Origin: Candidatus Nomurabacteria bacterium
GTDB taxonomy: Bacteria; Patescibacteriota; Minisyncoccia; Phycocordibacterales; SBAW01
Assembly: GCA_943349675.1 (NCBI GenBank)
Contig: CALQZN010000001.1
Coordinates: 1 to 57,962 of the forward strand
Length of the DNA stretch: 57,962 bases
Reading direction: 5' to 3'
The position numbers and the translations under genes are program-made. This document shows positions 606 to 57,962 of the stretch, in pieces; position 1 is the stretch's first letter; every line of letters begins with the position of its first letter. The notes beneath the pieces are model-generated. The model was not told where the DNA came from. It saw nothing but the letters and a program-made list of their open reading frames with translations, and did not search any database.

Positions 606-719
606 TAAGGTCCAAAAGTAAATATGTAGTAACAACAAATTATTGCGATTCTCAAGTCTTTGCCCGCCGCAGTCCCATCCTTTTTACAGGACGAAGGCGG
701 GCTCTCACTCACAAGAGGA

Positions 720-4005
<3,286 letters not shown>

Positions 4006-4216
4006 CCTTTCTCTTGTGAGAGAGAAAAGGAGACTTAAGAACCGCAATAATTTGTTGTTATATATTTTTCTACAGTTCTAAAATCGCTTTCACGATTTTA
4101 GATTTACCTTGCCCATCTCCACTAAGCTGAAAAGACCCGTATGGGAAATTTCTCAATGGGATGGAATTTGTGTTGTCAAAGAAGCTCGCACTCTTCAGAT
4201 TTTTTCCAACAAAAAA

Positions 4217-55756: not shown

Positions 55757-56473
55757 TTAAACGCTTCGCAATTCCTTCTCTGCCTGCACAAAATCGGGCG
55801 GCAGCGGCGCCTCAAATGTCCGCTCACCCCCGCGAGGGATCTTTACAGTGAGGGATAGCGCGTGGAGCGCCAGCCTATCAAACCCCAGTAGGGCTTCGCG
55901 TCTTGATGCATAGAGCCTATCAGCCACGATAGGGCGTTGTATCGCTGCAAAGTGCACACGGATTTGGTGTGTGCGACCAGTTTTTGGAAACACCTCTACA
56001 TAGGTAACTTCCGGAGTACGAGTTATAACCCGGTACATCGTCAGAGCCTCGCGCATAACACCATAGGCATTTTTTGCAGAGCGCGGGCCTGTGCCGCCGC
56101 GCGTGCTGCCAATTGGCTTGTCGATAATACCCCTATCATCTTTAATATTGCCGTATACAAATGCGCGATACACTTTGCGTACCTCTCTTGCCTGAAATTG
56201 ACTCTTTAAAAAATCAAAACTCTCTTGGGTACGGGCAACGATCAAGACCCCCGAAGTTTCGCGGTCAATGCGGTGCACGATACCTGGGCGGTCGATAACC
56301 GTGCCGTCGGCCAAAGTCTGCGGCTCCCCTACCCCCACAATGTCGGGGTACTCGGCAAGTAGCCAGTCGACCAGCGTTGCGCGGTCATGCTTGCCGTCGG
56401 CGTGCACGGCCAGGCCTGCGGGTTTGTTGACGACAATAACCGAGTCATCTTCGTATAGGACGGTGGGTTCCAC
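55757..56473 (-). CDS. RluA-family pseudouridine synthase (no S4 domain)
   Basis: The motifs are VVNKPAGLAVH and HRIDRETSGVLIVART. The GTG start lies 4 nt from the tRNA-Val 3' end. Confidence 0.85.
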   Translation of the reverse strand: MEPTVLYEDDSVIVVNKPAGLAVHADGKHDRATLVDWLLAEYPDIVGVGEPQTLADGTVIDRPGIVHRIDRETSGVLIVARTQESFDFLKSQFQAREVRKVYRAFVYGNIKDDRGIIDKPIGSTRGGTGPRSAKNAYGVMREALTMYRVITRTPEVTYVEVFPKTGRTHQIRVHFAAIQRPIVADRLYASRREALLGFDRLALHALSLTVKIPRGGERTFEAPLPPDFVQAEKELRSV

Positions 56474-56477
56474 TTTG

Positions 56478-56550
56478 TGCGCGGTGAGGGGCTCGAACCC
56501 CCGACCTTCTCAGTGTAAATGAGTTGCTCTACCAACTGAGCTAACCGCGC
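56478..56550 (-). tRNA. tRNA-Val (TAC)
   Basis: The acceptor is GCGCGGT/ACCGCGC, the D arm is GCTC-AGTTGGTA-GAGC, the anticodon loop is TTTACAC, and the T arm is GGGGG-TTCGAGC-CCCTC. Confidence 0.85.
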
Positions 56551-56617
56551 ATCGGCCTTAGGCCGAACCCTACTGTACCCCTATTTGGGGAGGTTTTCAA
56601 TACTTTCAAAATCTCAT

Positions 56618-56665
56618 GGTCACAAGTATTTTTCCTGACGGAAAAATCTCGCGACCCCGCCTCGC
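56618..56665 (-). repeat. structured repeat family B, copy B4 (short form)
   Basis: The copy contains GGTCACAAGT, the hairpin ATTTTTCC-tgac-GGAAAAAT, and the core TCGCGACCCCGCCTCGC. It has no second hairpin. Confidence 0.8.
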
Positions 56666-56681
56666 AGTTTATAGAGGAATC

Positions 56682-56760
56682 GGTCACAGGTTCCAGCCTG
56701 CTGGCTGGCCCCGCGACCCCGCCTCACTCGCCTACGCTCGCTCCGGCCTTCGATTCCTCG
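56682..56760 (-). repeat. structured repeat family B, copy B5 (stem fully replaced)
   Basis: The copy contains GGTCACAGGT, the hairpin CCAGCC-tgct-GGCTGG, the core CCGCGACCCCGCCTCAC, then ...CTCCGGCC and TTCGATTCC. Confidence 0.8.
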
Positions 56761-56816
56761 TAGTACCTCCAGCAACAAGACAAAACCGCACAATAGGTGC
56801 GGTTTTGTCTTGTTGG

Positions 56817-56888
56817 GTGCCCCCGCGAGGAATCGAACCTCGAATAACGGCTTAGAAGTCCGCAGTTATATCCGTTTAACTACAGGGG
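56817..56888 (-). tRNA. tRNA-Arg (TCT)
   Basis: The acceptor is GCCCCTG/CGGGGGC, the D arm is GTTA-AACGGATA-TAAC, the anticodon loop is CTTCTAA, and the T arm is CGAGG-TTCGATT-CCTCG. There is one A-G mismatch at 31-39. Confidence 0.8.
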
Positions 56889-56901
56889 CTACCCGGGCAT
56901 A

Positions 56902-57525
56902 TTACCCTAAAAACGGCAAGATACACCACCACACTATCGCGTACAGCACGCCAAGCGCCAACACAGCACCACCAAACCACAAAAAGTACCGGTCGACGAT
57001 GTCGATCACATGTTTGCCATAGCGGCCTGTAAGATACAAAAGCGCGGCCATCCGAGCCCCCCGCCCCACAAAATGCCCCGCAATAAAGAGGAAGAAATTA
57101 ACTTGTAGAAAACCTGCTGCGTAAATAAAGAGCTTGTCTGGCACTGGGGTAAACGATGTTGTGACCATCGTCAAAAATATATGCGAACCAAAGAGATGCT
57201 GTGCGGCCAAAAACGCATGTTGCATCGCATCGCTACGCAACAACAACGGGCCCAGCTGTGTAAATAGAAAGTACGCTATGAAGTAACTAACTATTGCCCC
57301 AGCAATTGATGCAGTTAGGGCGATTGCCAAGTACGCCTTCCACCGCTTAGGGTGCGCCAGCATAAGCGCCACCATAAAAATCTCTGGTGCGATTGGTAAA
57401 AAAATAGTATCAAAGAAGGCAATAATCCCGAGCCATCCCAACGCATGCTTACTTTCTGCATGCCGCACAAACCACTGCCATAACTGGTTCCGATGTGTGG
57501 CTAAACGGGCAAAAAGCAGCTTCAT
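56902..57525 (-). CDS. YqaA/DedA-superfamily membrane protein
   Basis: The motif FFDTIFLPIAPEIFMVAL is typical, and the protein is polytopic. Confidence 0.6.
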   Translation of the reverse strand: MKLLFARLATHRNQLWQWFVRHAESKHALGWLGIIAFFDTIFLPIAPEIFMVALMLAHPKRWKAYLAIALTASIAGAIVSYFIAYFLFTQLGPLLLRSDAMQHAFLAAQHLFGSHIFLTMVTTSFTPVPDKLFIYAAGFLQVNFFLFIAGHFVGRGARMAALLYLTGRYGKHVIDIVDRYFLWFGGAVLALGVLYAIVWWCILPFLG

Positions 57526-57864: not shown

Positions 57865-57962
57865 ATACTGTTTAGAGGAAATAGAAGCAAATAGAGTATC
57901 GACGGAGTCTTTCGCAGCGCGGCGGCGCGAGAACGAGCAAATTTTTAGCAAAAAATTATGCG

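Follow-up and report, generated by a model that had tools for sequence, protein, structure and literature searches.

B5 and B4, two folded units in the spacer between a tRNA-Arg and a tRNA-Val gene, are probably two insertions of a family of protein-less structured elements that sits behind the ends of very conserved genes. The window analysed here (the whole stretch of 57,962 nt) is contig 1 of genome G000 (611 kb, 47 contigs, 48% G+C). We consider the element probably insertional and mobile because one and the same site is occupied in some relatives and empty in others and is shared by different subtypes, because there are tandem and truncated copies, because genomes carry anywhere from 0 to 25 copies, and because near-identical modules recur across loci and families with a patchy occurrence in the phylum. 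The covariation to which the initial annotation had pointed is real and far stronger than five copies suggest. That annotation missed the closure of B5 by inverted and direct copies of the tRNA-Arg T-loop/T-stem, as well as the presence or absence of an inserted unit at this site in relatives.

All features of the locus described here lie on the minus strand, and the earlier placement of the element on this strand behind tRNA-Arg is supported. The host gene, tRNA-Arg(TCT), occupies positions 56816–56889 (ARAGORN; Rfam tRNA, 58.8 bits), and the downstream neighbor, tRNA-Val(TAC), positions 56477–56550 (ARAGORN; Rfam). Directly 3' of tRNA-Arg stands a trailer hairpin (56773–56815) with a 5-nt loop and no U-tract; it had been described as 16 bp long at 56778–56814, and we read it as 19 perfect pairs at about 56773–56815. 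A different hairpin replaces it in the closest relative, G009. In the sense direction, there follow arm X of B5 (56749–56759), the B5 core, which is a complete unit (56682–56748; 66.6 bits, E = 2.3e-13 with R1, the covariance model of the element built in this analysis), the direct repeat DR2 (56674–56682), and B4, a 5'-truncated unit (56618–56666; partial R1 match of 37.7 bits).

The blocks common to both units, GGTCACA (56618–56624 in B4 and 56682–56688 in B5) and GCGACCCCGCCTC (56651–56663 and 56713–56725), and the 4-nt loop of hairpin 1 are all present in the sequence, as first noted. B5 continues with a second hairpin and then the CTCCGGCC tail (56741–56748); B4 does indeed have neither. 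The gap between the two units, given earlier as 16 nt, is actually 18 nt (core end at 56663 to B5 start at 56682). Over the whole window, the 13-mer GCGACCCCGCCTC occurs 4 times exactly and 5 times with at most two mismatches, against 0.9 expected, and the composite GGTCACA-N15-40-GCGACCCC occurs 3 times against 0 expected. A related but distinct repeat variant, TTTCGCAG-CGCGGCGGCGCG-AGAACGAGCAAATTTTTAGCAAAAAATTATGC, was seen at the contig end (window 57910–57961, plus strand) and at G000 C44:3495-3548 and C11:8131-8187; it shares the two-hairpin layout, does not have the GGGGTCGC/GTGAC blocks, and gives weak R1 scores of 26–28 bits.

On the tRNA strand, the unit is built of two modules. Module 1 reads R-GNC-NNAG, hairpin 2, GA-GNC, and module 2 reads GG followed by the long hairpin GGUCGC-R-NN...A...NN-Y-GUGAC, in which one G·U pair never varies and one A is bulged; the core measures 65–130 nt, and the two modules together with the closing stem P0 make a three-way junction. 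In B5, module 1 is GGCCGGAG followed by hairpin 2 (with tandem G·A pairs) and GA, and module 2 is GAGGCGG followed by the long P1 hairpin GGUCGC...GUGACC. B4 keeps only module 2, that is, GAGGCGG and a P1 hairpin with an A/U-only stem, preceded by about 8 nt that resemble the end of hairpin 2.

The stems of hairpin 1 are wholly different in the two units and yet paired, as had been observed before: A/T-only ATTTTTCC/GGAAAAAT in B4 and CCAGCC/GGCTGG in B5. Hundreds of further copies, checked for unpaired stems, keep them paired. In a gap-free P1 alignment of 35 copies, 99.4% of the cells are paired and both sides have changed in 9 of the 15 pairs; one G·U pair is invariant, and the next pair varies among G·U, G-C, and A-U. 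None of 500 shuffles reached the P1 covariation score, and slid registers came nowhere near it. For the whole core (16 copies), 97.5% of the cells are paired, both sides have changed in 14 of the 23 pairs, and the score was likewise matched by none of 500 shuffles. The pairs changed on both sides include a 3-bp core helix, where covariation links N1 of GNC and the N of GAGNCGG.

The fixed-position A·C mismatches of the plus-strand long hairpin are G·U pairs on the minus strand, and the sense (tRNA-strand) fold is lower in energy in all of the 124 distinct copies (mean −19.6 vs. −12.9 kcal/mol); thus, the element works from the minus (tRNA) strand, in the form of RNA or single-stranded DNA. On this strand, B5 together with its arms has a folding energy of −46 kcal/mol (z = −4.24), with one three-way junction accounting for 80% of the ensemble, whereas the plus (antisense) strand has a z of only −1.46. 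The fold of B4 has an energy of −26.8 kcal/mol (z = −5.27). On the opposite strand, the tandem G·A pairs of B5 hairpin 2 would become pyrimidine clashes. Compensatory changes beyond the controls and a strand asymmetry carried by G·U pairs, both marks of a structured RNA, are present together. Such strong structural selection on one strand indicates that the fold matters for the spread of the element or for a role as RNA; the strong purifying signal on structure would also fit a host-useful RNA.

The closing stem P0 is made by the flanks and does not belong to the conserved core. Both of its strands reproduce the final bases of the gene just upstream, the 5' strand (X) in inverted and the 3' strand (DR2) in direct orientation. 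In B5, arm X (sense GAGGAATCGAA, with the copied stretch GAGGAATCG(AA) at 56749–56759) is an inverted copy of TTCGATTCCTC, the 3' segment of the T-loop/T-stem of tRNA-Arg. The direct copy CGATTCCTC stands twice, as DR1 within tRNA-Arg (56827–56835; plus-strand gaggaatcg) and as DR2, the 3' strand of P0, at 56674–56682, which is the arrangement of direct repeats seen with tRNA-targeting elements. The first 9 nt of arm X form the 5' strand of P0 and make 9 contiguous pairs with DR2 (register 2,0). P0 is a general feature: 57 copies give 4.8 contiguous pairs in one fixed register, and permuting their downstream flanks lowers this value to 3.0 ± 0.2.

Right after GTGAC, the downstream arm opens a direct repeat of the host-gene end; in relatives, these repeats are 14–55 nt long and perfect or near-perfect, and that of B5 is cut short at 9 nt. 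The upstream arm X tracks the local tRNA even for unusual T-loops (TGCGA, TTCAA, and TGCAA). Behind tRNA genes, the sites are of two types: one has a repeat that starts at T-loop position C56, and the other a long trailer hairpin that begins at the final tRNA bases and whose 3' strand is the arm. The direct repeat is copied from the gene and not from the arm, because it equals the gene despite an imperfect X, as in G000 C8 (X = GGAGACGAGAA, DR2 = CGAGTCTCC, an imperfect complement), and because in the duplicated rplL hairpin of L003 the loop orientation is direct, not inverted. Snap-back synthesis of DR2 from arm X was rejected on the same grounds, DR2 being equal to DR1 even where X is imperfectly complementary.

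At four loci (G000 C7 and C8, L024 in G030, and L029 in G007), the arm ends in ...GACGAGAA in place of the exact complement ...GACTCGAA, which against the repeat CGAGUC gives tandem G·A/A·G mismatches beside the junction; since this arm variant is heritable, arms are not newly copied from the target in every case. In several copies of the T-loop type (L014, L017, L018, L019, L026, and L038), a conserved extra hairpin separates the acceptor-complement of the arm from its T-stem-complement, and the split arm and DR2 then draw an acceptor/T-arm-like stack.

Several loci carry further traces of duplicated gene ends. In L006 (G049:C21) and L009 (G039:C2), the front three-quarters of tRNA-Glu run straight into the unit, which replaces the T-arm, and a complete tRNA-Glu stands just downstream of the partial one; judging by these stranded 5' parts, units may also come to lie within a duplicated tRNA copy. 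Behind tRNA-Gly, L038 (G022:C2) shows three partial copies of the tRNA-Gly end: a T-loop-to-3'-end repeat flanks the unit, and a second repeat of 25 nt (tRNA end and trailer) follows about 90 nt further on, which looks like two nested events. At L049 (G010:C29), some 80–250 nt behind tRNA-Val, there is a larger structured insert of a different kind, with ...CTCGTGACC at its end and GGATTCTCAC and GAGATTCCTGT arms on its flanks, which may represent a longer family relative. A full unit with the T-loop-like arms GAGAGGGATTCGAA ... CGAATCTCACTC was found at G000 C3:6734-6809 (minus strand) with no tRNA gene within 600 nt.

The order tRNA-Arg(TCT), tRNA-Val(TAC), rluA-like gene is conserved in the genus, and the orthologous spacer holds 0, 1, 2, or 2.5 units. 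It measures 0 nt in G024 and 48 nt in G063, both with no unit; 37 nt in G014, with a hairpin only and no core; 109–197 nt in seven genomes with one unit each, the subtype of which differs; 265 nt in G000, the genome of the window, with B5 and B4; and 375 nt in G018, with 2.5 units. Some relatives carry units behind tRNA-Val, unlike the window. The hairpin without a core in G014 does not fit a simple model in which everything between the repeats was inserted.

In G009, the closest relative, the rluA-like protein is 94% identical and the flanking DNA 80–83% identical on both sides. Window positions 56669–56817, comprising the trailer hairpin, arm X, and B5, have no counterpart there, and B4 aligns with module 2, the 3' half, of the single complete unit of G009. 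It should be noted that all of the comparisons involve different species that share about 80% of their DNA sequence, so that loss, recombination, or gene conversion could yield part of the pattern.

B4 had been taken as proof that the element is modular, which the wider comparison contradicts. The B4-type hairpin always follows a complete first module in six other genomes, and at this very site B4 aligns with the 3' half of the complete element of G009; from these sequence comparisons, B4 is best described as an older resident unit that is 5'-truncated, having lost its front half, and not as a product of modular design. A single deletion could explain both the loss of the front of B4 and the short 9-nt repeat of B5, and we infer that the repeat was probably shortened in this way.

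The strict pattern of the element matched in 44 of the 61 related genomes, compared with 0 matches of the reversed control pattern. With model R1, matches were obtained in 53 of the 61 relatives, at 0–25 copies per genome and with a best E-value of 1e-18; the eight element-free relatives are all at least 95% complete, and four of them belong to the same genus. In an even sample across the phylum, the element occurs in 4 of 150 other genomes, with some copies at about 80 bits, near-consensus like those of the window. The copies are found behind tRNA and ribosomal-protein genes of ultra-small (CPR) bacteria. Of 13 confident copies in G000, 10 lie 25–150 nt behind a same-strand tRNA gene, and two further confident copies follow ribosomal-protein genes. 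Six other genomes, one of them from another family, carry an identical 45-nt B4-type module behind their tRNA genes for Ile, Lys, Val, or Ala.

The proposal that the whole region forms a single precursor transcript is doubtful. Between B4 and tRNA-Val lies a sigma-70-like promoter, TTGAAA-17-TACAGT (56572–56600; 1 found vs. 0.2 expected), which is near the consensus and has the same hexamers and spacing in G009. Judged from this motif, tRNA-Val probably has its own transcription start; in that case, the small hairpin TCGGCC-uua-GGCCGA (56552–56566), which is positioned as previously reported, falls in the tRNA-Val leader and outside the element. The stretch 56552–56566 is kept in G009 with a different loop. 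No convincing terminator was found in the spacer between the B5/B4 pair and tRNA-Arg, and the tRNA-Arg trailer would be the only transcript to include B5 and B4.

If the units are insertions, the element would spread by inserting behind the 3' end or the terminal hairpin of strongly conserved and highly expressed genes. Insertion would duplicate the 3' segment of the target, so that the gene stays intact, and arm X would pair with that segment and mark or select the site. The insert contains no ORF, and among reverse transcriptases, Y1 transposases, and TnpB, no mobilizing protein tracks the element in the 61 relatives. Reverse transcriptase genes are present in 16 of these genomes, including the element-free G013 and G037, and RVT_1 was not found in G000, G018 (25 copies), G021, G010, G026, or G009; retrotransposition, at which the front-truncated copies hint, was thus rejected, as reverse transcriptase genes do not co-occur with the element. 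Y1_Tnp is present in 36 of the 61 genomes, among them the element-free G013, G035, and G046, and was not found in the copy-rich G026 (16 copies), G041 (13), or G019 (11), so a Y1/RAYT mobilizer was discarded for want of co-occurrence across the 61 genomes. The TnpB zinc-ribbon domain exceeds the cut-off in one of the 61 genomes only, and TnpB was discarded likewise. The inserting enzyme is therefore not a reverse transcriptase, TnpB, or Y1 transposase from the same genome. In G000, a search for three recombinase families gave one tyrosine recombinase (C10), one weak resolvase match, and no other candidate; the IS110 transposase profile PF01548 had no match in this genome.

We put forward only tentatively, as a possibility with perhaps a modest chance of being right, that the element is a new guide-bearing mobile nucleic acid, in which a core of about 65 nt carries an arm complementary to a conserved gene 3' end that picks the site. 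Its targets would be tRNA, tmRNA, 5S rRNA, and ribosomal-protein mRNA, and the gene end would be regenerated as a long direct repeat, the pasting being done by host enzymes alone or by a catalytic fold of its own. At tRNA targets, the arm and repeat would form a mimic of the tRNA top half, and RNase P and RNase Z might excise the element RNA from the trailer.

The alternative that survives best, though we consider it unlikely, is that of a host-useful 3'-trailer RNA, a cis-acting three-way junction kept behind tRNA and ribosomal-protein genes and spread by ordinary duplication or recombination. It could serve as a block to 3' exonucleases, as a processing signal, or as a mimic of the tRNA top half on which RNase P, RNase Z, or the CCA-adding enzyme acts. 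Such a role would account for the constant sense orientation behind highly expressed genes, for the RNA-typical compensatory evolution, invariant G·U pair, and tandem G·A motifs, for the acceptor/T-arm-like stack of several T-loop-type copies, and for the fact that no transposase tracks the element. However, the RNA would have to be dispensable, being absent from 8 of the 61 relatives (all at least 95% complete) and present in up to 25 copies in others, and the orthologous site is without it in G024, G014, and G063. Truncated stubs like B4 and tandem arrays are common, the direct repeats of up to 55 nt go well past the needs of pairing, and near-consensus copies occur in distant classes with most of the phylum having none.

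A second alternative, which we regard as quite improbable, is a miniature cis-mobilizable att cassette, that is, a circle of about 150 nt or a folded single-stranded DNA that carries a copy of the tRNA 3' segment and enters the tRNA gene by Campbell-style integration. A tyrosine recombinase of the host or of a phage would act in trans and bind the folded core, much like the folded attP of CTX phage. The direct repeats run from T-loop C56 to, or just past, the tRNA 3' end, and this start matches the classical T-loop sublocation of integrase att sites, a class reportedly set out by Williams in 2002. Furthermore, pairing of X with DR2 restores the target in duplex form, the layout of a unit plus a bit and the tandem arrays suit the integration of circles, and G000 does encode one tyrosine recombinase. 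The targets, however, are many tRNAs and also rplL, rplK, and others, each with matching arms, which is not expected of one site-specific recombinase. No integrase gene stands beside any copy examined, and the strand asymmetry of the G·U and G·A pairs points to a single strand and not to duplex att DNA. Nor are there copies on viral contigs among the matches listed: two pattern scans of such contigs gave only chance matches among those listed, and the GAGNC prefix combined with a well-paired hairpin was found at 0 of the 236 viral-contig loci among the matches listed.

Finally, we give next to no probability to the reading that these are ordinary terminators or hairpins of tRNA spacers that look alike by chance: hairpins are frequent behind tRNA genes and two copies alone would be weak evidence, but the reversed control gave 0 matches against more than 120 true ones in the 61 genomes, no shuffle attained the covariation score or the share of paired cells, and R1 E-values reach down to 1e-18.

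Insertion of a structured element remains our preferred reading, and the element itself is apparently undescribed. The Rfam 15 scan of the window at gathering thresholds returned rRNA and tRNA only, and at E ≤ 10 the region 56400–56950 left B4 and B5 unmatched except for miRNA/snoRNA noise at about 15 bits. The 23S rRNA gene of the window (716–4009, minus strand) is 3294 nt long compared with a model of 2925 positions; the extra 370 nt or so are an intervening sequence or intron, and no 16S gene follows it in the window. The HDV-like, hammerhead, twister, pistol, and hairpin ribozymes and group II domain V were dismissed by an eye comparison of their layouts, backed by the Rfam scan, the helix order and the conserved junction letters being unlike those of the element. 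A K-turn is a doubtful fit: its non-bulged GA is present in the 3x2 internal loop NNA/GA, but the A that must follow the bulge is not conserved. A full-text literature search found no published description of the element.

Each of the known systems with which we compared the element shares one or two traits with it and fails on the defining ones. Integrative elements of tRNA and tmRNA genes and CIMEs, their derivatives that lack an integrase, likewise duplicate the stretch from the T-loop to the 3' end on both sides, leave the gene intact, and vary in presence and absence; in contrast, the present element has only about 100–200 nt, no integrase, a strand-specific three-way junction, an inverted copy of the target, and many different tRNA and protein-gene ends as targets, the arms matching each of them. 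MITEs and other small bacterial repeats (Correia, RUP, ERIC, BOX, and REP/REPIN) are similarly short, non-coding, multi-copy, and rich in hairpins, often 3' co-transcribed, with tandem or truncated copies and uneven copy numbers. Unlike MITEs, the element has no terminal inverted repeats of its own, since the inverted sequence that flanks it varies and is copied from each target, matching the local tRNA or gene end; its duplication is a variable 9–55 nt as opposed to short and fixed, and no parent IS is known. From REP/REPIN-RAYT systems, it differs in that Y1/RAYT genes do not track it.

Mobile systems that carry a guide (group II introns, IS110 bridge RNA, and the TnpB omega RNA of IS200/IS605, with PATEs) resemble the element in having a stretch complementary to their own insertion site, in inserting behind hairpins, and in a folded RNA-like core. 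Group II introns use EBS/IBS pairing, and class C introns insert behind terminator hairpins. The element, however, has no intron domains, no reverse transcriptase or TnpB gene, no IS110 gene in G000, and no Rfam match, and it duplicates its target, which these systems do not. With integron attC and CTX attP(+), it shares extrahelical bases and branched variable parts within a single-strand fold, as well as tandem arrays, but not the R/L box consensus, the integron integrase, or a cassette ORF context, and it lies at tRNA ends with arms copied from the target. TIGR-Tas arrays, which have alternating repeats of 8–12 nt and 9-nt spacers beside a Nop-domain Tas gene and are also reported from parasitic bacteria (PMC12045711), were ruled out by architecture, since the unit has 65–130 nt and long hairpins, shows no 9-nt periodicity, and stands behind tRNA genes.

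If mobile, the element would be among the smallest self-contained insertion units of bacteria, living in genomes of about 0.6 Mb that are otherwise almost free of repeats. As its arms are rewritten for each target and no transposase tracks it, it would point to programmable, pairing-directed insertion by host functions or to an as yet unrecognized enzyme, and either a programmable insertion or a new enzyme would be of interest for the study of mobile DNA and for genome engineering. If it is a host RNA instead, it would be a widespread and so far unknown 3' module on the tRNA precursors of CPR bacteria. In practice, the units create partial tRNA copies and "split" tRNA genes, which mislead annotation and the prediction of genomic islands.
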